Virus genome (UHGV): UHGV-1353509 | Reading direction: 5' to 3' (one strand) | From: a virus | Length of the DNA stretch: 42,388 bases | Part shown: positions 1-36,676 of the stretch, in pieces | Position numbering within the stretch: the stretch's first letter is position 1 | Layout of the letters: every line of letters starts with the position of its first letter | Made by a program: the position numbers and the translations under genes | The notes under the pieces: generated by a model | What the model was told of the DNA's origin: nothing | Seen by the model: the letters and a program-made list of their open reading frames with translations, nothing else | Database searches by the model: none

Positions 1-3000
1 ACAACGTCCGTATTAAAGAGATTATTCTCCCTGGCTAATGTCTTTTCTGCGGAGATCGAATTTGAGACAGTACTGAACAGAGACTACTCTTTAAAAGAGA
101 TTGTCCTAAATGTATATCGGAAACACTCCGATACAGACAGCGGAGTCGGAGAATACCGGAATGACATTGTACTGCGGTACGGGAAAGGAATTACCGGAAT
201 TCGAAAAACCACAGATGCCGAGAAGCTTTACACCTGTATCCAGCCGATCGGGAAAGACGGGCTGACGATTAATGGACTGGACAAAAAAGAATACGATGAG
301 AACGGGAATATCGAGTACTTTACAGACGGCGCAATCATCCGGGCACCACAGGCAAGAGACCGGTTTCCATCCAACATCGTAAATAAGGCTGATGCTTATA
401 TCCTGATGCGGAAAGAGTATGATACGGATAACAAGGACAAGCTCTATAGCATGGCTCTGTCTGATCTTAAAACAGCATCCGAACCAGTAGTGACCTACGA
501 GGTGGATGGATATTTTGACACCAACATCGGGGACACCGTGAGGATGCAGGATCAGGAGTGGACACCAGTGCTTTATCTACAGGCGAGAGTGTCCGAACAG
601 GTGCGCAGTCTTACCAATCCAAAGACAGCAAAGACGGTATTTACAAACTACAAAGAGCTTACATCCGAAATTTCGGACAGCTTATTACAGAGGATGCAAG
701 ACCTTATTAATAAAAATAAGGTTTATACTTGCTCTATCTCAACAAACAACGGCATTATCTTTAAAAATGGCAGCGGCAGCACTACTCTTACTGCTTACGC
801 TTACGATAACGGCGTGGATATGGCGGACAAGCTACAATTCCGATGGAGCAAGGATGGACATGAGTTTTATGTTGGTAAGAGCGTTACGGTAAATGCTACT
901 GACGTGGATACAAAGGCGGTGTACTCATTTGAGGCTCTAGAAAATGGGATAAAACGTGGGTATTACGAGGTCACAATCACGGATGTAATGGATGGAGAGG
1001 ATGGAAAAGACGGGGAACAGGGTCCTCAGGGCGAGAAAGGAGAGCAAGGCGAACAGGGGATTCCTGGAACAGCTGGTGCGAATGGAAAGACCAGTTATTT
1101 CCACATCAAGTATTCTTCTGTGGCAAAGCCGACAACGTTCAGTCAGATGACAGAGACGCCGTCTGCTTATATTGGAACTTATGTGGACTTTGTACAGGAA
1201 GATTCTACAGATCCTGCAAGATATACCTGGTCGCAGTTTAAAGGATCGCAAGGCGTAAAAGGAGATCAGGGAATTGCTGGTAAGAATGGTGCAGATGGGA
1301 AAACAAGTTATTTACATATCGCCTACGCAAACAGTGCTGATGGAAAGACAGGGTTTGATGTTTCGAATAGCGCTGGGAAGTTTTATATTGGACAGTATAC
1401 AGATTTCACGCAAGCGGATTCTACAGACCCGACGAAATACGCATGGACAAAAATCAAAGGCGAAAATGGAAAAGACGGAACAAACTCAAGGAGCTACATC
1501 CTGGAAGCGTCCGATACCGCTATTAAAAAAGGTGCAGACGGAGCTTTAACACCATCTAAAATAACATTCCGGTCGTTTTATCGAGATGGAGACAGTGCGA
1601 CAAGGATACCATATAATGGTAGATTTAAAATCGAAGAGTCAACCAACGGAACATCATACTCCGTGAAATACACCTCATCTGCGAACGAAAGTGCAAAGGA
1701 GTATACACCGACTGCAACTGCGAAAATACTCCGTTGCACGCTTTACAGCGCAGACGGGACTATAAATGCTTTGGATACGCAGAGTGTTGTTGTGCTTACG
1801 GATGTGGATAATTTGGAGATTGGCGGTAGGAATTTACTATTAAACACAGGGTTTAATACTTTTAACCATTGGATTAAAGGTAGTAATACAAAATCTCTCC
1901 AGATGGTTAATGGATGGTGTGAAGTTACGATTGGTGGGACATGGTCTGGATTTGTTCAAGAATTTATACCAGAAAAAAATGTTGAATACATAGTGAGTTA
2001 CGAAGCGTATCTGGTAGACACTGTTGCTGAAACTGCTATGTTAGAAACAGATTTTGGTACTCCAGATCAAAATCAAACAATTAACAAAACGCCTGCAAAA
2101 TATTCATTGAAATTAAAATATCCATCTACATCTTTAAATGGAAAAATAGATTTCATGTTATCAAATAATGAAGTGGGTAAAAAATGGAGAATTCGAAATA
2201 TCAAACTTGAAAAGGGTAATAAAGCCACAGACTGGTCTCCCGCTCCTGAGGACATAGAAACTTTAGTAGTAACATTGTCCAACGATTCCCAAACAGTAGC
2301 AACAGACACAAACGGAAACGGTGGAAACTTTATAGATTGCTCTACAAAAGTGCAGGTTTACAACGGCGCACAGGACGTTTCAAAAGTCGCTACTTACACC
2401 GTAACAAAATCTTCCGGAATTGCTGGTACATGGGATTTAAGTACACGTACTTACAAGGTATCCGCTCTATCTACGGATAACGGATGGGTTGACATTAAAG
2501 TAACATACAACGGAAATTCTATCACAAGACGGTTTACGGTTTCGAAATCGAAACAGGGCGCGCAGGGAGCAACGGGACCTCAAGGTGATAATGGACCACA
2601 AGGGCCGGCGGGGACATCAGGAAGAGGGATAAAAACTATTACAGAATATTATTTGATTTCTTCCGCAAAAACAGGAATTACAACAGCGTCAAGCGGTTGG
2701 AGTACATCAGTTCCGACGATGACAGCAACAAATAAATACTTGTGGAACTATGAAAAATTTACGTTTACAGATAATACGACAGCGACCACTACACCAAAAA
2801 TAATCGGGATATACGGAGACAAAGGAGCAACAGGAGCTACCGGTCCACAAGGACCTCAAGGGAATGCAGGTGCAACAGGTCCCCAGGGGCCACAAGGAGC
2901 GACTGGCCCGAAAGGACCGCAGGGGGCAACTGGTGCAACGGGACCACAAGGGGTAACTGGAAACGGAATAAAGTCTATCACGAATTATTATCTTGCAACG

Positions 3001-4059
3001 GCAAGCGGAAGCGGTGTGTCGGCGTCCACATCAGGATGGACTACAACTGTACAAGCAATAACGGCGTCAAAAAAATATCTGTGGAATTATGAGGTTGTTA
3101 CCTATACAAATGGTAGCACGTATCAATCAGCACCATGTATCATCGGAGTATATGGTGATAAGGGAGCGACAGGTGCTACAGGAGCAACAGGACCAAGTGG
3201 CATAATTGTATCTTCTACGGCTCCGTCAAATCCTAAAGTTGGCCAGTTATGGCAAACGGCATCCGGTCAGCCGATCAAGCGGTGGGATGGAAGTAGGTGG
3301 GTGATCCATTATATCGCAGTCGAAAATCTGGACGTGCAAACGCTCAGTGCGATCGTTGCCAACCTTGGAACTGTAACAGCCGGACTTATTAAGAGTAAGG
3401 GTGGACACTTTTACATAAATGTAGACACCGGAGAGATCGTGTCTAAAAGCAGTGACGGTACAATTTCCGTTTTTGTAAAAAAAGAGAATATTGACATGGT
3501 AAGATCGTTTACAGCGTCTAGGTACTGGGGGAGTCGATTAAACTACTCTGGATTAGAATTTTATTCCGGCGGCAGTAGCATGGCAGATGATATCGCGAAT
3601 GGATCTATGGTATGCTCTATTCGCGGAGATGAGGAGATGCGTGACTTTTCGGTGACAAACATAAATGGAGATAGCATATGGCTTATTAGGACAATTAAGC
3701 AGCTTACAAAATCTATCTCTTACGATTCCGGTACCGTGAAAGGTCCATATACAAGTACAAACTCCGCAAATAACATCCGTGTGGAACTAAAAAGAAGAGG
3801 ATGTATGGTAACATGCAAGATCACAATGCTTGCACAATTTCCAGGAAGTGGCGAACACGGGCCATTCAACGAGGTGAAAATTCCAGTAGGATATCGACCG
3901 GTTGTGGATTTCTTTGCTCCCTATAGCGAAGTTGTAGGATCTAACATATTCGGAACGGGAAGATACGGCATAGGAAAAGATGGGGGGATCAAGATTTATG
4001 TGGAGAATGCCGCATGGACAGAACGTCACGCAGCGTTTACGTGGATTACAGATGATTGA
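1..4059 (+). CDS. Tail-associated protein (Tal) fused to a receptor-binding tail fibre, C-terminal ~1350 aa; 5' partial because the frame is open from base 1
   Basis: Frame 1 has no stop from nt 1, so the ORF-track start at 406 is not the true start. Five collagen-like G-X-Y tracts and two pairs of duplicated ~55-70 aa modules ([11 protein letters not shown].../[11 protein letters not shown]... and [12 protein letters not shown].../[13 protein letters not shown]...). Lies downstream, across the window junction, of the Dit and tail endopeptidase N-terminus. Confidence 0.8.
994..1092 (+). repeat. Collagen-like G-X-Y coding repeat ([33 protein letters not shown]) inside the tail gene
   Basis: 11 consecutive Gly-X-Y triplets in a locally GC-rich island. 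Similar tracts at 1243-1305, 2554-2628 and 3154-3200. Confidence 0.8.
2815..2969 (+). repeat. Longest collagen-like tract of the tail gene (17 G-X-Y triplets, [51 protein letters not shown])
   Basis: Read directly from the translation. The DNA is a near-repetitive ggNccN 9-mer pattern. Confidence 0.8.
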
Positions 4060-4255: not shown

Positions 4256-5980
4256 CCTGAATCCGTGAAGTTCGGAGATTTTTAATGTTGATCCCTGAAG
4301 GGAACAGATCAACACTGAGAATTTCTATTCTGTGGCATGCAACACTTCTTTGTAAAGATCATCGTTGCCTTAAGCAGCATGTTTATCCACAGGCATTGCC
4401 TAAAAAGGGCAGACGCCCCCCTTAAGCGCTACCTGTCATGGCGAAATATAGAAGTAAAATAGAAAAAATCATCACATACTGAATTGTGCAAATGCAGTAT
4501 ATATTTCGGCGAACGTATGTCGCCAGACATTACTTTTGCCCAGACCCATAATCAATTGCCGTGCATGCTCGGTAACATGGCTTGCCATCATAATCATGTT
4601 GCTGATAACCGTACGGAGTCTGCGACGATGTACCTTATGGCGTGTTTTTCTTCTGCCAATGGATTCCTGTCCAATCATCCGCAGGATATTGTAGGCAAGA
4701 ATGGTCAATTCAAGCACCAGTTCATTGGTGTCAAACTTTCCGGAAGGCAGCCGTTCCACATCCATATCGGTCTTGATTTCACTGTGAAACTGCTCACATT
4801 CACCATGGGCATGGTAATTCTGAATGACTTCTTCATCTGTCATCCCGGTATTCGTCCACCAAGTGTTCACTTCCAGATCAGAAGGAAGAAGAAATTGACC
4901 ATATTTATCGATGGTGCGTTCTATGATTTCGTATCCTGTACGTATGGTAACGGTTTTATCACTGCCATCCACTGTGTGATAAGTGACATCTTTCCAGTCA
5001 CTTCCAATATAGACGGTTTTTCCGTCACGTGGGGATGTGATATTTTGCGAGTTGGTTTTTGCCATCTCGAACCACGCTTCCCTGCTTTCACGGCGTAGAT
5101 TTCGTTTTATAATGAAATAACAGCCGCTTTCCAACAGAATTCCAATGTTCTCTGCGGCATCATTCCCGGAATCTAAGCGGATAAGGAGCGGCTCATTTGT
5201 GAGTTGTTTACACAGTTTAATTGTTTCACGCAGAAAACCGGGTGTGTCGCACTGGCAATGTTGCCTTCCCTCACGCAGTTGTGCATTGATTAGATACCCT
5301 TCCGTTCCGATATAAGCCATGATTGGAGCATATCCATCATACCCTTTATAAGTACGTGATACGCCTTCTTTTCTGGTTTTCGAATTGTCAAATGGTGTGA
5401 CATCAATGTCAACCGGAACGAAACCATTGGGAAGTTTGGAAGGAACGATTCCATTGGAACGCAAAAGTTCCACGTTTTCTGCCAGAATATGTTCTCGCTG
5501 GGAAGAGCCAATATCATCCATTCTCTGGCGGAGGGTTTCTTCTGATGGAATGTTGTAGGCGATTCCAAGAGCACTTTTATAAAAATCCCGGTCATCATCC
5601 ATTTCATGAACAGCCTGAAATTGTGGTTTCCCCATACACAACATACCAATATAGGAAAGGAGAATGTCGCCATTTTTAATCTGATGCTGCGAACGGTTGG
5701 GAGTTACATCCATTCGATTGCAGCGTTTTACAAAATTGCTTTTGCCAAGGATAGCACCTACAACAGCAAGACCGCTTGCAGGAATAATACGTTCATTGGT
5801 AAATTCAATTTTTATATTTTTCATGATATTCTCTCCTTTGTAATGTAAATTTCTAAGAAGATTATACCAGAAAGAGACTTCACCCAACAGGTGAAAATAA
5901 AAAATACGGAAACATCTTGAAAACCATTGGAAATTCAGCCCTTTCGATGATTAAGGGGAGTTGAACTTCACGGATTCAGG
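4256..5980 (-). mobile_element. Insertion sequence, IS1380-family-like, 1725 bp, with 18-bp perfect terminal inverted repeats and a 5-bp target duplication TACAT
   Basis: Left IR CCTGAATCCGTGAAGTTC at 4256-4273. Right IR GAACTTCACGGATTCAGG at 5963-5980, its reverse complement. TACAT at 4251-4255 and 5981-5985. One 450-aa DDE transposase ORF inside. Confidence 0.8.
4472..5824 (-). CDS. DDE transposase, IS1380/IS4 superfamily
   Basis: 450 aa from the ATG at 5824, with RBS AAGGAGAG at 8 nt. Acidic catalytic-region motifs (LIRLDSGNDAAEN..., YFIIKRN). Size and IR/TSD geometry fit IS1380. Family assignment is by recall only. Confidence 0.7.
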   Translation of the reverse strand: MKNIKIEFTNERIIPASGLAVVGAILGKSNFVKRCNRMDVTPNRSQHQIKNGDILLSYIGMLCMGKPQFQAVHEMDDDRDFYKSALGIAYNIPSEETLRQRMDDIGSSQREHILAENVELLRSNGIVPSKLPNGFVPVDIDVTPFDNSKTRKEGVSRTYKGYDGYAPIMAYIGTEGYLINAQLREGRQHCQCDTPGFLRETIKLCKQLTNEPLLIRLDSGNDAAENIGILLESGCYFIIKRNLRRESREAWFEMAKTNSQNITSPRDGKTVYIGSDWKDVTYHTVDGSDKTVTIRTGYEIIERTIDKYGQFLLPSDLEVNTWWTNTGMTDEEVIQNYHAHGECEQFHSEIKTDMDVERLPSGKFDTNELVLELTILAYNILRMIGQESIGRRKTRHKVHRRRLRTVISNMIMMASHVTEHARQLIMGLGKSNVWRHTFAEIYTAFAQFSM

Positions 5981-6669: not shown

Positions 6670-6759
6670 ATGAGCGAACAGAACGAATTTGGAAGAATAA
6701 CAGCAGAGGAACTGGAAAAGGTATTTGAGACAGAAGAACAGGAGGAAGAGAAAGAATGA
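6670..6759 (+). CDS. Small acidic protein (29 aa)
   Basis: Strong RBS TAGGAGGTGAG at 6 nt. Stop overlaps the amidase start (ATGA). Confidence 0.35.
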   Translation: MSEQNEFGRITAEELEKVFETEEQEEEKE

Positions 6760-7562
6760 AAATTGGCTTAAGGGGAGGACACTCCCCAAATTGTAAAGGT
6801 GCAATCGGTCTGATCGATGAGCAGGCAGAAGTGCGGAAGATCTACAATGAGCTCGCACCAATGTTAGAGGCTGCCGGTCATACTGTGATTGATTGTAATT
6901 CCAACGCATCCAATGTGTCTGGTGAGCTGTCTGACGGCACAAATAAGGCGAATAGTGCGGGGTGCGATATCTATGTCACCTTGCACATGAATGCGGCAGG
7001 AGCGGCGTCAGCCGGCGGTACAGAGGTGTGGTTATACGATGCATCTAACCAGACTATGAACACGATCGCAAGCAACATCTGTAATAATTTTGCAGGAAAA
7101 GGATTTGCAAACCGCGGTGTTAAATATAGTTCCGGCTATCATGATCTGAATGCATCCAATATGCCCGGTATGATCGTAGAGACATTATTTTGCACCGGCA
7201 CAGATGATGTAGCACGGTATCGTAGTTTAGGCACAAAAGGAATTGCTGAGCTGATTGCAAAGGCGATCGACAGTAGAGCGTCTGCATGCAGCGAACAAAA
7301 AAATAACCAGAATACAGGAATCGAACAGGAAGGAGAAGAAGAGATGAAATGTTTATTTACAGTAGAGGGAAAAGGTGCAGTGTATTATTTTGACGGTCAA
7401 AAAGTAATAACATTGGGTCATCCAGACGAATTAAAAATCATCCAGCAGATTTACAAGGACAACAATGGTAAGGACATGCCGTGTTACAAGTGGAGTCCTA
7501 AAGCGCCATGGTATGCAAGGCTCATGTCGGTAATTTACAGTAAAGAGACCACATCTATTTAA
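6756..7562 (+). CDS. Endolysin: N-acetylmuramoyl-L-alanine amidase (Amidase_3 catalytic domain) plus a C-terminal wall-binding domain
   Basis: MKIGLRGGHSPNCKGAIGLIDE... and ...DIYVTLHMNAAG... are typical of the CwlA/Amidase_3 family. RBS GGAGGAAGAGAAAGA. Confidence 0.8.
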   Translation: MKIGLRGGHSPNCKGAIGLIDEQAEVRKIYNELAPMLEAAGHTVIDCNSNASNVSGELSDGTNKANSAGCDIYVTLHMNAAGAASAGGTEVWLYDASNQTMNTIASNICNNFAGKGFANRGVKYSSGYHDLNASNMPGMIVETLFCTGTDDVARYRSLGTKGIAELIAKAIDSRASACSEQKNNQNTGIEQEGEEEMKCLFTVEGKGAVYYFDGQKVITLGHPDELKIIQQIYKDNNGKDMPCYKWSPKAPWYARLMSVIYSKETTSI

Positions 7563-29114: not shown

Positions 29115-30473
29115 ATGAATGGGAAAAGACCATACAAACTGCCGGAACCGCTTTTATGTTCCGCTGATAAAGAAATCAATATGACATTGATAGACGAATA
29201 CATCAGAAAGCATGAAGAGCGAATACCAAGGTACAGATACCTTGAGAATCTATACAAAGGATTTCACGATGTATTCCGTCTTCCAGAAAAGGAGTCATGG
29301 AAGCCTGATAACCGGCTGGCAGTGAATTTCCCAAGGTATATCACAGAGACCTTTTTGGGATATGCTTATGGGATTCCGGTTAAAAAATCACATCCGGACG
29401 AAAAAATAAAAGAGGCGATCCTTGAATTTGACCGGGATAATGATATCTCCGACCAGGAATATGAGCTGGCGAAGAAGTGCTGTATCTATGGACATGCATT
29501 TGAATATTTTTACCAGGACGAAGAAGCAAAGACAAAGACAGTAGTCTGCAATCCAAAAGAACTGTTTGTTGTCTACGATGATACCGTAAAGAGCCGTGCA
29601 TTATTTGCTGTTAGATATGGAAAAAAGGACGATAATGTTACAAGGTATGGTGAGATACTTACAAGGACAGAAATCATCCAATTTGAGGGAGAAAAGATGC
29701 AGGAGGGCATGCCGAATCCTTACGGGCGTATTAACTGCGTGGAATACGTGCTGAACGATGAGAGAATCGGTCTGTATGAAGAAGTTGCCGGCATGGTAGA
29801 AACATACAACCGAGTGATCGGAGAAAAGGCGAACGATGTAGATTCTTTCGCAGAAGCGTATCTTGCAGTGCTTGGTGCAGAATTGGACGAGGAAGGCGTT
29901 TATAAAATTCGCGACAACCGGATTATAAACCTTTATGGTACAGATAACGCAAAAGATATTATCGTGCAGTTTCTTGGCAAACCTACGGCAGACGGAACAC
30001 AGGAAAATCTTTTGAATCGGCTTGAGGATTTGATTTATCAGACAAGTATGGTAGCGAACATCTCTGACGAATCTTTCGGAAATGCTTCTGGAACTTCCCT
30101 TGCATACAAATTACAGTCCATGAGCAATCTTGCGTTGACGTTCGACCGCAAAGTTGAAAAGTCCATGAGGAAACGATATAAGCTGTTTTGCTCTCTTGCA
30201 ACGAATGTGTCAGATCGGGATGCATGGAAAGATATTGATTTTACGATGAGCAGAAATATCCCGAAGAATCTCTTGGAGGAAGCGCAGACAGCACAGGCGC
30301 TTGAAAGCATCGTGTCCAAGGAAACACAGCTGCAGGTTCTCTCGATCGTCAAGGATGTTTCAGAGGAGATTGATCGGATGGAGAAAGAGGACAAAAAGAA
30401 GCAGGAAACAATCGTAGAGAAGCGGATGTTCGGAGGCGCGGAAGATGAGCAGTCAGGAGTATTGGAAGAATAG
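29115..30473 (+). CDS. Portal protein (SPP1 gp6-like)
   Basis: 452 aa directly after terL. Typical portal pattern YRYLENLYKG... Confidence 0.8.
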   Translation: MNGKRPYKLPEPLLCSADKEINMTLIDEYIRKHEERIPRYRYLENLYKGFHDVFRLPEKESWKPDNRLAVNFPRYITETFLGYAYGIPVKKSHPDEKIKEAILEFDRDNDISDQEYELAKKCCIYGHAFEYFYQDEEAKTKTVVCNPKELFVVYDDTVKSRALFAVRYGKKDDNVTRYGEILTRTEIIQFEGEKMQEGMPNPYGRINCVEYVLNDERIGLYEEVAGMVETYNRVIGEKANDVDSFAEAYLAVLGAELDEEGVYKIRDNRIINLYGTDNAKDIIVQFLGKPTADGTQENLLNRLEDLIYQTSMVANISDESFGNASGTSLAYKLQSMSNLALTFDRKVEKSMRKRYKLFCSLATNVSDRDAWKDIDFTMSRNIPKNLLEEAQTAQALESIVSKETQLQVLSIVKDVSEEIDRMEKEDKKKQETIVEKRMFGGAEDEQSGVLEE

Positions 30474-31725
30474 AGAAGAGGAGCAGCGGAAGAAAAACAT
30501 TAGGGACGAAGCTGAATATACGAAAGAGATTGAGAAGATCTATGTGAACATGATGGATGAAATTCAGAAAGAAATTAATGGATTCTATACACGTTATGCA
30601 AAAGCAGAAGGGATCACAATCGCAGAGGCAAAAAAGCGGGTATCCAAAATGGACATTGATGCGTACAGTCGAAAGGCAGATCAGTATGTAAAGAATAAGG
30701 ATTTTTCAAAAGAAGCCAATGAGGAGATGCGACTCTATAACGCAGCTATGAAGATTAATCGACTGGAAATGCTTAAAGCAAATATCGGAATGCATCTTGT
30801 TGGTGGGTTTGATGAGCTCCAGAAGTATTTTGATGAGATTCTTACGGAGAAAACACTGGAAGAATTTGAAAGGCAGGCAGGTATCTTAGGGGAATCCATT
30901 CAGAACAATGCGAAGATGGCACATTCGATCGTGAACGCTTCTTTCCACAATGCGAGATACTCAGACCGTATTTGGATGTATCAAGATATGCTGAAAACTG
31001 AATTGTCGAAGCTATTACAGACTGGTTTGATACAGGGTAAGAATCCGAGAACACTGGCAAGGCACCTTACCAAACTGTTTGGAGTAAGCCGGGAAAATGC
31101 AGAGCGACTGATGATAACGGAGCTGTCGAGAGTGCAGGCAGAAGCGCAGAAACAGTCTTATATCCGCAATGGATTTGATGAGTATGAGTTTATCGCAGAA
31201 CCTACCGCCTGTCCGATCTGTAGATCGTTGGACGGAAAACATTTTAAAGTATCAAAAATGATGCCTGGAGAAAATGCGCATCCAATGCATCCTAATTGTC
31301 ATTGCAGTACAGCAGCATATATGGATGATAAAGAGTATCGAGAATGGCTGGATGGATATTCCGAACATGGAATGGATTTTGAAACTTGGAAGAAGAGGGT
31401 TGAAAAGAAATCTACGTTTGATATAATAAAGGCAGATAAAACTGTCAGCGGACATTCCGGTACTCCTAAAATGGCAGAGGCGGGAATGGTAATAGACCAT
31501 ATTGGAAAAGATGGGAAAGTAGATGTAAGAGCTTTTTACGGAGAGTCAAAATTAAAATATAAAGATATCCATACAACTGCGCATGGGAATCCCAAGCAGC
31601 ATCCTTATGGAGAACATGGGGAACACGTACATGATTATACATGGGGAGATGATGGTAGACTGAAGAATAAGACAACTCGCGAATTAAGCAAAGAGGAAAG
31701 AAAGGAGAATGGCGATATATTATGA
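30445..31725 (+). CDS. Minor head protein with a MuF / SPP1 gp7 domain and a 125-aa His-rich C-terminal extension
   Basis: MuF core ends at ...CPICRSLDGKHFKV...HPNCHCSTAAY. The extension carries HTTAHGNPKQHPYGEHGEHVHDY. Confidence 0.75.
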   Translation: MSSQEYWKNREEEQRKKNIRDEAEYTKEIEKIYVNMMDEIQKEINGFYTRYAKAEGITIAEAKKRVSKMDIDAYSRKADQYVKNKDFSKEANEEMRLYNAAMKINRLEMLKANIGMHLVGGFDELQKYFDEILTEKTLEEFERQAGILGESIQNNAKMAHSIVNASFHNARYSDRIWMYQDMLKTELSKLLQTGLIQGKNPRTLARHLTKLFGVSRENAERLMITELSRVQAEAQKQSYIRNGFDEYEFIAEPTACPICRSLDGKHFKVSKMMPGENAHPMHPNCHCSTAAYMDDKEYREWLDGYSEHGMDFETWKKRVEKKSTFDIIKADKTVSGHSGTPKMAEAGMVIDHIGKDGKVDVRAFYGESKLKYKDIHTTAHGNPKQHPYGEHGEHVHDYTWGDDGRLKNKTTRELSKEERKENGDIL

Positions 31726-31961
31726 ATAAAGATGAATTAAGACAAATTTTATCTGAGTGTTGCAATGATATTTCTTTCTTTTACAAAGGATTGGCATCGG
31801 GAGTGACAGTTGAAGTCAGAGATTACATTCCAACGTATCAAGCGTGGCATGGTGATGATACGAAAGAGTATGATAATGTAGATGAGGTTATGAATGATAA
31901 ATTTTATAGCGGAAAATCATTAAACGATCTAGTAAAAGAAGTAGAAATTGATGCAATGTAA
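31722..31961 (+). CDS. Small protein (79 aa) translationally coupled to the MuF gene; candidate immunity protein
   Basis: ATGA overlap with the MuF stop. Followed by a terminator. Confidence 0.5.
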   Translation: MNKDELRQILSECCNDISFFYKGLASGVTVEVRDYIPTYQAWHGDDTKEYDNVDEVMNDKFYSGKSLNDLVKEVEIDAM

Positions 31962-31963
31962 TA

Positions 31964-31993
31964 CCATCGGTCGAGCGGGCTGGTGGTTTTTTT
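31964..31993 (+). terminator. Rho-independent terminator (CCAUCGG / CUGGUGG stem with two G-U pairs, 9-nt loop, U7)
   Basis: Immediately after the stop at 31961. Confidence 0.55.
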
Positions 31994-32017: not shown

Positions 32018-32335
32018 GTGAATGATATGAGCATACCAGAGAAAGTAAAAGTTTTATATAAAGAATATACAGTAGAAGAACAACAGAATCTACATGATGA
32101 AGAAGGCGATTTGTATGGGCTGATACAGTATCTCCCAGAGAAAATCGTCCTGAATGCAGATGCGTCAGAAGAACAGAAAAAATCGACTTTAGTACATGAA
32201 TTGTTGCATGCACTTGATGAAATGTACAGTATTGAACTGGAAGAGAAGCAGGTTGAGAAACTTGGAAATGCGTTGTATATGCTACATTGCGATAATCCAC
32301 AATTGTTTCACGCCGAAGGGGGCGATAACGATTGA
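32018..32335 (+). CDS. Small HExxH-motif protein (105 aa; VHELLHAL), putative minimal zinc metallopeptidase
   Basis: HELLH with a downstream E. TGA overlaps the Prp start. Confidence 0.5.
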   Translation: MNDMSIPEKVKVLYKEYTVEEQQNLHDEEGDLYGLIQYLPEKIVLNADASEEQKKSTLVHELLHALDEMYSIELEEKQVEKLGNALYMLHCDNPQLFHAEGGDND

Positions 32336-32619
32336 TTGAGGTAAGAATTCGACCAGAGCGAATCGAAATCTCTGGACACGCCGGGTACGCAGAACCTGGA
32401 AAAGACATTGTTTGTGCTGGCGTTACGGCGCTTACGCAGACGCTGATCCAGTCGATTGATGACTTAACGGATGATGAAATAGAATACAGAATATCTCCCG
32501 GAAAGGCTGAGATAGAATACAGGAATCTGTCAGAGAAATCAAAAACTCTGGTGGATTCCTTTTTCGTTGGCATTCGCTTGATTGCCGATGAGTTTCCGGA
32601 TTATGTAGCAATTATGTAA
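32332..32619 (+). CDS. prp: Prp-like cysteine protease (DUF464; homologue of the ribosomal L27 N-terminal processing protease)
   Basis: GHAGYAEPGKDIVCAGVTAL carries the His/Cys dyad signature. TTG start with SD GAAGGGGG. Confidence 0.8.
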   Translation: MIEVRIRPERIEISGHAGYAEPGKDIVCAGVTALTQTLIQSIDDLTDDEIEYRISPGKAEIEYRNLSEKSKTLVDSFFVGIRLIADEFPDYVAIM

Positions 32620-32701
32620 TTCGCGCCCAAGTCTTGAAGGCGTAAAAAGCTAGGGAAAAGGACCATGAAGAATGTCATTAAACTTTTAGGAGGTAAAGAA
32701 A

Positions 32702-33277
32702 ATGAAGAGCAGGATGTTTAGAATGCTGCAGTTATTTGCAGAAGAAACCGTAGATCACACAGCAGAACCTGATGCGGTGAAAGATAGTGTTAATCCGGAA
32801 AACACATCTGATGATAGCGGGGAAGAAAAAAAGTACACAGACAAGGATGTGGATGCGATTGTAAACAAAAGATTCGCAAAATGGAAAACTGAGCAGGAAC
32901 AGGCGGTAAAGAGTGCTAAGGAAGAGGCAGAAAAGCTGGCAAAAATGAATGCTGAGCAGAAACAGAATTACGAGATCGAGAAGTTGCAAAAAGAGAATGA
33001 AAAACTGAAGCAGGAGGCTGCAAAGGTTGAGCTTAGCAGAAGCGCCACAGGCATTCTTGCAGAAAAAGGAATTGAAGCAACGCAGGATGTTCTTGATTTT
33101 GTTGTAGGGAATGACGCTGATGATACGAATGCAAAAATTGATAAGCTTGTAAAAATCGTGGAATCCCAGCTTAAGAAAGCCGAGATCGCCAGAGCAACCG
33201 GAACTACACCAAAAACCATGACGAACTCAGGAAGCCAGTTGTCTGAATTTGAAAAGAGACTTGCAAAGTATAAATAA
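32702..33277 (+). CDS. Scaffolding protein with an N-terminal Prp-cleavable leader (MKSRMFRMLQLFA|EE)
   Basis: Coiled-coil-rich and acidic. LQLFA motif. RBS TTAGGAGGT. Confidence 0.75.
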   Translation: MKSRMFRMLQLFAEETVDHTAEPDAVKDSVNPENTSDDSGEEKKYTDKDVDAIVNKRFAKWKTEQEQAVKSAKEEAEKLAKMNAEQKQNYEIEKLQKENEKLKQEAAKVELSRSATGILAEKGIEATQDVLDFVVGNDADDTNAKIDKLVKIVESQLKKAEIARATGTTPKTMTNSGSQLSEFEKRLAKYK

Positions 33278-33290
33278 GGAGAATGTGAAG

Positions 33291-34211
33291 ATGAAGAACA
33301 GAGAATTTATGATGTTACAGTTATTTGCGGCAGGAGACAACAATGATATGCCGGTAAGAAGCTACCAGCTTGAGTTTAAAAGTCTTTTGCAGGCAGTATT
33401 TAAAAAGATGTCCTATTTCGCGGATTTTTTCGGCGGCGAAATTGAGGCACTTGATGGTGTTAGAGAGAATGAAACGGCCTTTTATGTAAAGACATCGGAT
33501 ATCCCGGTTGTAGTGGGAACTGGGTACGATAAGACAGCTACGAAAGCGTTCGGAACAGGAACAGGAAGCTCTAGCCGTTTCGGTGAGAGAAAAGAGATTA
33601 TCTACGCAAACACACCGGTTAATTATTCTTGGGAATGGAATTTCCATGAAGGAATTGACCGACACACCGTAAATAATGATTTTGACGTTGCGGTAGCAGA
33701 TCGCTTGGAACTGCAGGCGAGGGCTAAGACAAAGAAGTTTAACAAGCAGCACGGAAAATTTATTTCCACATCTGCAGGAAAAACTTTAAGTGTTACTGAT
33801 TATACGGCAGACAATGTATTAAAGCTGTTTAATGAGCTGTCTAAGTATTTTAATAACATCGAAGCAGTTGGAACGAAAAAAATTAAGGTTTGTTCCGATC
33901 TGTACAATGCCGTCGTGGATCATCCTTTGAATACGACTGCTAAAAACTCCACTGTAAACATTGATGGCAATGAGGTTGTGAAGTTCAAGGGATTCCTTGT
34001 AGAGGAGATTCCGGATGAATTATTCCAGTCTAAAGAATGCGCCTATGCTTATATCGCAGGAGTTGGTAAGGCGTTTACTGGAATCAACACGGCAAGAACA
34101 ATCGAATCAGAAGATTTTGACGGCGTAGCTTTACAGGGTGCCGGTAGAGCCGGAGAGTTTATCTTAAACGATAACAAAAAGGCGGTAGTAAAAGTGACAG
34201 TGGGGGAATAG
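33291..34211 (+). CDS. Major capsid protein (HK97 fold, 80alpha-like) with an N-terminal leader MKNREFMMLQLFA|AG
   Basis: Start set at the ATG with RBS AAGGAGAATG. The ORF-track start at 33249 lies inside the scaffold gene. Confidence 0.8.
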   Translation: MKNREFMMLQLFAAGDNNDMPVRSYQLEFKSLLQAVFKKMSYFADFFGGEIEALDGVRENETAFYVKTSDIPVVVGTGYDKTATKAFGTGTGSSSRFGERKEIIYANTPVNYSWEWNFHEGIDRHTVNNDFDVAVADRLELQARAKTKKFNKQHGKFISTSAGKTLSVTDYTADNVLKLFNELSKYFNNIEAVGTKKIKVCSDLYNAVVDHPLNTTAKNSTVNIDGNEVVKFKGFLVEEIPDELFQSKECAYAYIAGVGKAFTGINTARTIESEDFDGVALQGAGRAGEFILNDNKKAVVKVTVGE

Positions 34212-36041: not shown

Positions 36042-36569
36042 ATGTTTAAGACAGGATTACAGTTATTTGCAGAGGCGGTATCCGGCAAGAAAATTGTATA
36101 TTTGTACCGCCTTGCAGAAAAAGCAAAACAGGAAGCAGCAAAGAATCTTGCGTTCACAACGGAGAATGGAAGAACTAAGAGTAAGGATGCAGATTCTACT
36201 GCAACGAAAGACGGTACAATCCGTACACCAGGAGCTGCGGAGACAGAAATTACAGCCACTGCGGTTTTGGCAAAAGGCGATAAATTGATCACAGAACTTG
36301 AGGACGCTATGGATTCCGATAAACTTCTTGAAATTTGGGAAGTAAACCTTGAAGAAGCAGCGGAAGCGGGTCCGAATAAATTTAAGGGAATGTATTTCCA
36401 AGGATATCTCACAGAAGTTGAGGTCACGTCTTCTGCAGATGAGAATGTGGAAGTATCCCTTACTTTTGGCATCAACGGATCAGGTAAACGCGGAGATGTA
36501 ACCGTGACAACGCAGCAACAGGAAATCGCGAATTACGTGTTTAAGGACAGCGTGAAAGAGGGGGAATAA
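36042..36569 (+). CDS. Major tail protein (phi13-family) with an N-terminal MFKTGLQLFA|EA motif
   Basis: RBS GAGAGGAGAAAAAG. Tube-protein pattern. LQLFA motif shared with the scaffold and capsid genes. Confidence 0.8.
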   Translation: MFKTGLQLFAEAVSGKKIVYLYRLAEKAKQEAAKNLAFTTENGRTKSKDADSTATKDGTIRTPGAAETEITATAVLAKGDKLITELEDAMDSDKLLEIWEVNLEEAAEAGPNKFKGMYFQGYLTEVEVTSSADENVEVSLTFGINGSGKRGDVTVTTQQQEIANYVFKDSVKEGE

Positions 36570-36637: not shown

Positions 36638-36649
36638 ATCATGTACATA

Positions 36650-36676
36650 GAGGGCGGCAAGACCGCTCTCTTTTTA
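36650..36676 (+). terminator. Rho-independent terminator (GAGGGCGG / CCGCUCUC stem, 5-nt loop, U5) after the major tail gene
   Basis: 8-bp stem including one G-U pair, followed by TTTTTA. Confidence 0.55.

Follow-up and report, generated by a model that had tools for sequence, protein, structure and literature searches.

Which proteins does a phage process when it encodes its own copy of a ribosome-maturation protease, and is that copy needed? The question is raised by UHGV-1353509, a viral genome of 42,388 nucleotides (hereafter the window, meaning the whole stretch of DNA analysed), whose late region codes for a small cysteine protease of the Prp family and for scaffold, capsid and tail-tube proteins that all begin with an L27-type leader. 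Prp is an essential protease of ribosome maturation and a proposed antibiotic target. To our knowledge, the sole phage link studied so far is the hijack of host Prp by phage 80α, whose capsid and scaffold processing by the host enzyme was reportedly described by Wall et al. in 2015. It is probable that the phage Prp of the window removes propeptides of 9-12 residues (…LQLF↓A…, the arrow marking the predicted cut) from scaffold, capsid and tube, both the cleavage and its assignment to this enzyme being deduced from sequence.

The prp gene (32332-32619, + strand) codes for a protein of 95 amino acids that matches Pfam PF04327 (Peptidase_Prp) with 78.2 bits (cut-off 27) over profile positions 1-89 of 90, and also phrog_4478 'peptidase'. 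Its dyad, His16 (32377-32379) and Cys28 (32413-32415), lies inside GHAGYAEPGKDIVCAG. Both residues are conserved in alignments with S. aureus Prp (4peo/7kld) and S. mutans SMU.848; in the dyad motif GHA-x(7-8)-DIVCA, SGHAGYAEPGKDIVCAG aligns to DGHADHGEYGHDIVCAG of 4peo/7kld (His22/Cys34 in S. aureus). The motif is kept in all 79 loci retrieved by a Prp-seeded scan of IMG/VR (45-99% identity). The gene found just upstream of the scaffold gene is therefore the DUF464/Prp homologue that a preliminary description of this DNA had announced. It does not reach the cut-offs of the NCBIfam cellular Prp equivalogs (PRK14553; best score 42.6 bits for cut-offs of 122-225) and is positioned between a MuF-type minor head gene and the scaffold gene, not between rplU and rpmA. 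Because of this low equivalog score and its location in the phage head module, the window Prp is classified, from these comparisons, as a phage-type paralogue and not as the housekeeping orthologue.

The prp start codon is TTG and overlaps the stop of the preceding open reading frame (ORF) as TTGA. A TTG start preceded by a GGAGGTG Shine-Dalgarno sequence is found in 75 of the 79 relatives, and a conserved weak start behind a good Shine-Dalgarno sequence fits an enzyme needed in catalytic amounts only. Prp homologues form 1,663 clusters at 90% identity. The best 120 listed have 92-99 amino acids, nearly all of them 95, and are, where named, Caudoviricetes 'cysteine protease/YsxB-like' proteins; database labels of phage prp read 'peptidase', 'cysteine protease' or 'YsxB-like'. 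In Dorea phage DO134P1 (OP172779.1, L081:6950-7249) prp is unannotated in GenBank, the frame lacking an ATG and displaying CTG at the usual TTG position, followed by ATT. The prp of Latilactobacillus phage TMW 1.1365 P3 is annotated in truncated form, from MDIVCAGV…. An annotation point follows, as TTG-start prp genes are overlooked in GenBank records such as OP172779.

The candidate substrates, encoded in one operon with prp, are the scaffolding protein (32702-33277, + strand, DUF4355, N-terminus MKSRMFRMLQLFAEE), the major capsid protein (33291-34211, + strand, phrog_840, N-terminus MKNREFMMLQLFAAG) and the major tail (tube) protein of the TP901-1 family (36042-36569, + strand, N-terminus MFKTGLQLFAEAV). 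The capsid gene has its true start at ATG 33291, with a GGAG ribosome-binding site, and a GGAG ribosome-binding site is also present 8 nucleotides upstream of the tube gene. The tube protein is assigned by Pfam Phage_tail_2 (PF06199, 57.4 for a cut-off of 23.8) and TIGR02126 (92.6 for a cut-off of 37). The pentapeptide LQLFA occurs three times in ~84,800 six-frame codons, versus 0.08 copies expected from composition, and 0 of 300 shuffles reached three copies. Scaffold, capsid and tube have one copy each, at 5-8 residues from the start and inside the first 13 residues. The preliminary description had claimed the L27-type motif for exactly these three structural proteins, and it holds for each of them.

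The leaders have 12, 12 and 9 amino acids in scaffold, capsid and tube, respectively. They display the properties by which L27-type propeptides were recognised: a position at the extreme N-terminus (9-15 amino acids), the core LQ-x-F, a small P1' residue and absence from orthologues lacking the system. The general L27 leader motif is (D/N)LQ(F/L)F↓A (PMC9405229) and the scissile bond in S. aureus is F↓A (PMC5744158, PMC9405229). Because of this precedent the window sites are read as LQLF↓AEE, LQLF↓AAG and LQLF↓AEA; the cut had earlier been placed after the alanine (A↓E), one residue too late. The predicted propeptides are MKSRMFRMLQLF for the scaffold (32702-32737, + strand; predicted cut MKSRMFRMLQLF↓AEETVD), MKNREFMMLQLF for the capsid (33291-33326, + strand; predicted cut before AAGDNN, putative mature N-terminus AAGDNNDMPVRSYQ) and MFKTGLQLF for the tube (36042-36068, + strand; predicted cut before AEAVSGKK, putative mature N-terminus AEAVSGKKIVYLYR). 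There is no alternative in-frame start between the tail-tube leader and the conserved tube domain.

The position of the predicted cut is matched by homologues that have no leader. In phages that lack prp, homologous capsids have the predicted mature residue as their start: that of Latilactobacillus phage TMW 1.591 P1 begins MAGENNNQAVRSYQ, at the point where the window protein reads …F↓ followed by its putative mature N-terminus, while the leaderless capsids of Streptococcus phage Javan115 and Bacillus phage PBC1, which also lack prp, begin MPANQNNSARRYEKQ and MGTKNQQLAAKTYQ, respectively. For the 60 listed of the 147 INPHARED records with a homologous capsid, the alignment starts at query residue 11 or beyond, with 3 exceptions. 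The tube family was compared through 95 full-length representatives of clusters at 50% identity. An L27-like leader is found on ~15-20 of these, and the remaining ones begin MAEAVKG…, MAEAISGKK… or MEAVKGKK…, which corresponds to the predicted mature N-terminus. Since leaderless homologues of both capsid and tube start at the predicted cut, the leader appears from these alignments to be a removable add-on.

These N-termini also bear on whether the leaders are cut at all. They might be uncleaved tags for assembly or chaperone recruitment, to which the Prp homologue binds without cutting. Phage 80α lends this some plausibility, as it is viable without cleavage itself while its scaffold leader is essential (PMC5744158). 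In 80α, however, the proteins are cleaved, host Prp cutting capsid (gp47) and scaffold (gp46) at F↓A (Kizziah et al. 2017, PMC5744158). A protein that solely binds would also fit poorly with the strict conservation of the catalytic His and Cys in all phage copies, or with leaderless homologues that start exactly at the predicted cut. We consider an uncleaved tag very improbable.

The association between prp and leaders extends well beyond the window, and the combination is kept in many phages far more often than chance would allow. A search for the strict motif in six frames of the 79 Prp loci gave 192 matches, distributed over scaffolds (70), homologous capsids (52), tail tubes (52), other ORFs on the + strand (17) and the opposite strand (1); the 17 other ORFs code mostly for non-homologous, capsid-sized proteins. 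To avoid any bias for the leader, another scan started from the mature tube sequence. Here prp is present in 58 of the 58 loci with enough upstream DNA, 56 of them featuring the leader and 2 an LQLF↓G variant. About 16 (~16) more divergent loci have the same pattern of prp and leader, so that the tail-tube leader is conserved in 52, 56 and ~16 loci over the surveys. Its occurrence on tail proteins of related phages, for which a check had been proposed, extends to 52/79 Prp loci and 56/58 mature-tube loci. About 150 related viral loci in all have the same four-part pattern of prp plus three leaders. A scan seeded on the leader-bearing tube representative P0133 found no relatives in IMG/VR, and one seeded on the leaderless tube P0129 gave solely leader-bearing relatives, at 50-60% identity.

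Two tube ORFs of this collection have an extra N-terminal arm. In L056 the leader is followed by ~35 additional residues before the conserved EAVxGxKIVY (MNKLQMF↓ATENEEEQ…ASEAVKGRK) and L062 likewise reads …LPLQVF↓AGSGNKEAVQG; the distance between cut site and tube domain therefore varies.

Four isolated phages combine Prp with a leader on scaffold, capsid and tube. Brochothrix phage BL3, Latilactobacillus phage TMW 1.1365 P3 and Acutalibacter phage Fontainebleau have hosts of other families and no relationship to the window phage, while Dorea phage DO134P1 is a relative. The four sets are listed as independent lineages, with non-homologous capsid and tail proteins. The sites of scaffold, capsid and tube are, in this order, NLQLF↓AEPG, NLQKF↓AAGK and DLQKF↓AGEI in BL3; KLQLF↓ADGG, NLQHF↓ADIL and DLQKF↓AETF in TMW 1.1365 P3; NLQLF↓DDGG, NLQLF↓DTDA and DLQLF↓DESR in Fontainebleau; and NLQLF↓AEGD, GLQVF↓TAPD and GLQVF↓SESN in DO134P1. 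Scaffold, capsid and putative tube have Asp at P1' throughout the Fontainebleau clade (L170 and 10 further loci, L172-L181, with Prps 70-100% identical). Mature L27 always starts Ala-(S/H/T)-K-K (PMC9405229, Table 2), and S. aureus Prp is described as having an S1' pocket of limited size (PMC9405229). Asp on every substrate of this clade, versus Ala in L27, suggests that the sites co-evolve with the phage's own enzyme. The Fontainebleau-clade Prp has a longer loop between His and Cys, GHAPRANGEAPGQNIVC.

Would the host enzyme suffice? Host Prp might cleave the leaders as it does in 80α, the phage copy being redundant or serving another end, such as sustaining L27 or ribosome maturation late in infection or changing the substrates of host Prp. 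Leaders do occur without a phage prp in 80α (PMC5744158), on the tail protein of phage φ13 and in Bacillus phage BCJA1c, so a phage prp is not needed in principle. The capsid of BCJA1c (L202:6462-7406) has a long leader, MKKQFKPFLPLNNIQFF↓ASGT… (…NNIQFF↓ASGT), its scaffold and tube have none and it carries no phage prp; it is presumably 80α-like and dependent on host Prp. The window leaders fit the general L27 motif (PMC9405229). Yet all lineages examined have prp in the late structural operon, directly ahead of the scaffold gene, where it co-occurs with leaders on several substrates; P1' Asp on all substrates of the Fontainebleau clade is unlike any L27; and phages with homologous capsids that lack prp are mostly leaderless. 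Prps are, moreover, reported to be species-specific (PMC9405229). The invariable placement of prp in phages with three substrates, together with the P1' Asp clade, favours the phage enzyme, and cleavage by host Prp with a redundant or otherwise employed phage copy is rather unlikely. An argument from the acidic P2' residues, that they call for a special enzyme, was rejected: such a residue is present in …F↓ADQS, a site cleaved by S. aureus host Prp (PMC9405229, Table 1).

Several points nevertheless weigh against processing by the phage Prp. The mature N-termini of these phages are predictions, made from sequence like the cleavage that would create them. The window leaders (LQLF↓A) match the normal L27 site and the host carries an essential Prp, which could do the job, given that leaders exist without a phage prp in 80α, in the φ13 tail and presumably in the BCJA1c capsid. 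Cleavage is not required in 80α, which makes the weight of processing for function uncertain. In loci L051 and L053, prp and the leaders on scaffold and capsid are present and the tube is leaderless, starting MSVIKGKRIIYLYR; the tail leader is therefore dispensable. Finally, the tight co-occurrence within the Lachnospiraceae clade may in part reflect shared ancestry.

With these reservations, maturation by the phage enzyme could proceed as follows. The late operon codes for a small Prp of the phage's own (His16/Cys28), with a weak TTG start. Scaffold, capsid and tube, the most abundantly made proteins, each start with a mimic of the N-terminal extension of Firmicute L27. The phage Prp would cut after Phe and yield mature scaffold, capsid and tube beginning AEETVD, AAGDNN and AEAVSGKK, respectively. 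A single enzyme would in this manner mature the building blocks of head and tail, neither depending on the essential host Prp nor saturating it. The estimated load, several hundred cleavages per virion (hundreds for capsid and scaffold and ~200 tube subunits, with a tape measure of 994 amino acids), could saturate the host enzyme. The leader itself is probably a temporary tag for assembly or folding, by analogy with the 80α scaffold leader.

A more far-reaching proposal, which we put forward tentatively as a possibility, is that one phage Prp provides self-contained maturation of head and tail tube, with the leader acting as a removable brake or chaperone tag against early tube polymerisation and with enzyme and sites co-evolving, as the clades with P1' Ala and P1' Asp suggest, in insulation from host Prp. 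If true, tail-tube assembly of siphophages would have a protease-controlled checkpoint, the first to be described.

The gene that precedes prp raises a further question, whether a second protease takes part. It codes for a HExxH mini-protein (32027-32335, + strand; the ORF runs from GTG 32018, with 105 amino acids and the sequence VHELLHAL). Homologues place the conserved start at ATG 32027, and the HExxH codons are 32195-32209. The match to Pfam Peptidase_M78 is marginal (23.6-23.7 bits for a cut-off of 22) and limited to profile positions 13-54 of 123; phrog_1233 is matched with E = 1e-20. The family has 129 members of 96-104 amino acids, in which H60, E61, D67, Y70 and E76 are invariant and H64 nearly so; the invariant D67 and E76 are candidate third zinc ligands. 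A confident AlphaFold2 model (predicted local distance difference test, pLDDT, 88.5) features a four-stranded sheet and two long helices. Its closest folds, all weak, are IrrE/PprI, the minigluzincins selecase and abylysin, and CapP; the best Foldseek hit is PprI/IrrE with a probability of 0.98 but E = 0.012 and a TM-score of 0.40. The search of the Protein Data Bank (PDB) gave no significant sequence match and PADLOC no hit. The protein is probably a small zinc peptidase. It resembles ImmA/IrrE (M78) and selecase/abylysin in its HExxH helix after a small β-sheet, its minigluzincin size (~100 amino acids) and the marginal M78 match. It differs from ImmA/IrrE in its location in a late structural operon, in the weak structural likeness (TM ~0.4, E = 0.01) and in having no adjacent repressor or antirepressor partner of the ImmR/DdrO kind: no helix-turn-helix gene adjoins it in any context examined, its neighbours being the MuF-type gene, a 79-amino acid ORF, prp or the scaffold gene.

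The preliminary description had considered this protein to be translationally coupled to prp and had raised a role as second protease or regulator. The TTGA overlap of stop and start codons is present in this genome, but the arrangement is local and not conserved. That the protein takes part in maturation as a further protease, or regulates or activates Prp, would agree with that overlap and with a minimal zincin fold having an invariant HExxH beside its marginal M78 match. The gene is, however, an indel of ~313 bp between the 79-amino acid ORF and prp, present in only 9 of the 79 related-prp loci and missing from the other 70; the gap measures 58 nucleotides without it and ~371 nucleotides with it. 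It is found 3.4 kb upstream of prp in L056, and in L089 a thioredoxin gene stands between the two. L082-L088 have the HExxH gene in phages with neither prp nor any leader. A nearly identical copy (99%) adjoins Prps of just 79-99% identity, a sign of horizontal shuffling. As it is an optional indel, occurs in displaced copies and is found without prp or leaders, the gene is not tied to prp and is interpreted from its distribution as accessory cargo in a hot spot between the MuF and scaffold genes, not as a Prp partner. A joint role with Prp is thus scarcely credible.

Near its 3' end the HExxH gene has a poly-G run (32318-32322) of 5, 6 or 7 G among the window and L001, L006, L023 and L046. Depending on its length, the HExxH stop and the prp TTG overlap by 3 or 7 nucleotides or are 4 nucleotides apart, and the C-terminal tail changes as well. 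Sequencing noise or slippage could account for the variation.

The genome is complete and circularly permuted and belongs to a temperate siphophage with a Lachnospiraceae host. It codes for a serine recombinase, a Rha-type regulator, a replisome organiser, terminase, an SPP1-type portal and a MuF/gp7 minor head protein, besides head and tail proteins, a collagen-like fibre and an amidase, and has an inserted insertion sequence (IS). It is most closely related to uncultured phages of the human gut (MT835606, 90% nucleotide identity) and to Dorea phage DO134P1. R. gnavus phages that match the window DNA were uninformative and were set aside, since they share only the head-fibre and flanking regions, have HK97-type heads and lack leaders. 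The IS has a DDE transposase gene (4472-5887, - strand), flanked by the genes for the collagen-repeat tail fibre (406-4059) and the amidase endolysin (6756-7562).

The ORFs named in the preliminary description are all present on the + strand in the order HExxH ORF, prp, scaffold and capsid, with the tail-tube gene further on. A terminator-like hairpin with a T-run (31963-31987, + strand; 10-bp stem, 5 GC pairs, TTTTTTT) follows the 79-amino acid ORF and precedes the HExxH gene and prp. Its T-run region is also found in relatives, with or without the HExxH gene, and the hairpin is the start boundary of the (HExxH)-prp-scaffold-capsid…major tail protein block. Another terminator-like hairpin (36649-36671, + strand; 9-bp stem, 6 GC pairs, T-run) is located directly 3' of the tail-tube gene, and is followed by the genes for the tail assembly chaperone (36692) and the tape measure (37445).

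Upstream of the first hairpin, the MuF-type protein (30445-31725) has a C-terminal extension of 126 amino acids, and its gene overlaps (ATGA) the acidic 79-amino acid ORF (phrog_15041; region 31345-31961). Pfam and PADLOC gave 0 matches for the extension and for the ORF. The layout resembles that of MuF polymorphic toxin/immunity gene pairs, and such a pair is a tentative lead here. The interval between the MuF and scaffold genes looks like a moron hot spot within the late operon; its cargo elsewhere includes a lipoprotein-like ORF of 152 amino acids, MKKVMSLLLIALMCCGMLVGCG (L086:4161-4619), the thioredoxin gene (L089:5301-5558) and the HExxH gene. In L089, a Frisingicoccus prophage with HExxH, thioredoxin and Prp genes and three leaders, the MuF/gp7-type protein (L089:3444-4706) has an internal site, …KIMMDLQFF↓AEKDIKNQ…, at nucleotide 4446, ~80 residues from its C-terminus; the site is absent from the window MuF protein. 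Judging from this site, Prp may free a C-terminal module of the packaged MuF protein in L089.

Gut- and food-associated Firmicute phages with a Prp of their own are very numerous (1,663 protein clusters, more than 150 viral loci), and isolated phages with the system are available on four host families. Among these, Dorea DO134P1, Brochothrix BL3 and Acutalibacter Fontainebleau are tractable systems to study the role of the leader. The occurrence of Ala, Asp, Gly, Ser and Thr at P1' offers natural specificity variants for protease engineering, and Prp inhibitors could affect phage-host dynamics, which calls for caution. Beyond PMC5744158, a literature search, in which subscription papers were incompletely covered, found no paper on phage-borne Prp or on cleaved tail proteins. 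In preprints of 2025-2026, the discoverers of Prp still describe the leader on 'some staphylococcal bacteriophages' as intriguing and mention no phage-encoded enzymes.

The window system is closest in logic to that of 80α, with which it shares an L27-like leader (…NLQ[F/H]F↓A…) on capsid and scaffold and a cysteine protease of the Prp family as the predicted enzyme. 80α relies on the chromosomal Prp of its host and carries leaders on head proteins only, whereas the window phage encodes its own divergent Prp and has the tube tagged too. The divergent phage-encoded protease, the tail tube as a third candidate substrate and the specificity variants set the system apart from 80α. The preliminary description had called cleavage of a tail-tube protein by this route not the usual description. 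An L27-type leader on a major tail protein is not without precedent, for that of φ13 was remarked on by Kizziah et al. 2017 (PMC5744158) and its sequence is confirmed (MIEKLKQAPRFLKLNLQHF↓ADTG, …KLNLQHF↓ADTG), and leaders also occur within the tube family compared above. φ13 differs from the window phage in having an HK97-type head with its own prohead protease, a leaderless capsid and no phage prp, and its tail protein belongs to a different, larger family.

Compared to the cellular Prp/L27 pair (rplU-prp-rpmA, MEROPS C108), the phage enzyme belongs to the same Pfam family, has the same His/Cys dyad and is associated with the same core, LQ(L/F)F plus a small residue. It is encoded outside the ribosomal operon, has 95 instead of ~106 amino acids and scores far below the equivalog cut-offs, while the phage substrates have acidic P2'/P3' residues (AEE, AEA) where L27 has A(S/H)KK. 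The classical prohead proteases (HK97 gp4 / S78, U9, U35) offer a parallel as phage proteases encoded in the head module that trim capsid and scaffold, but they have an unrelated fold and catalytic type, work on long Δ-domains within the procapsid and leave tube proteins unprocessed.

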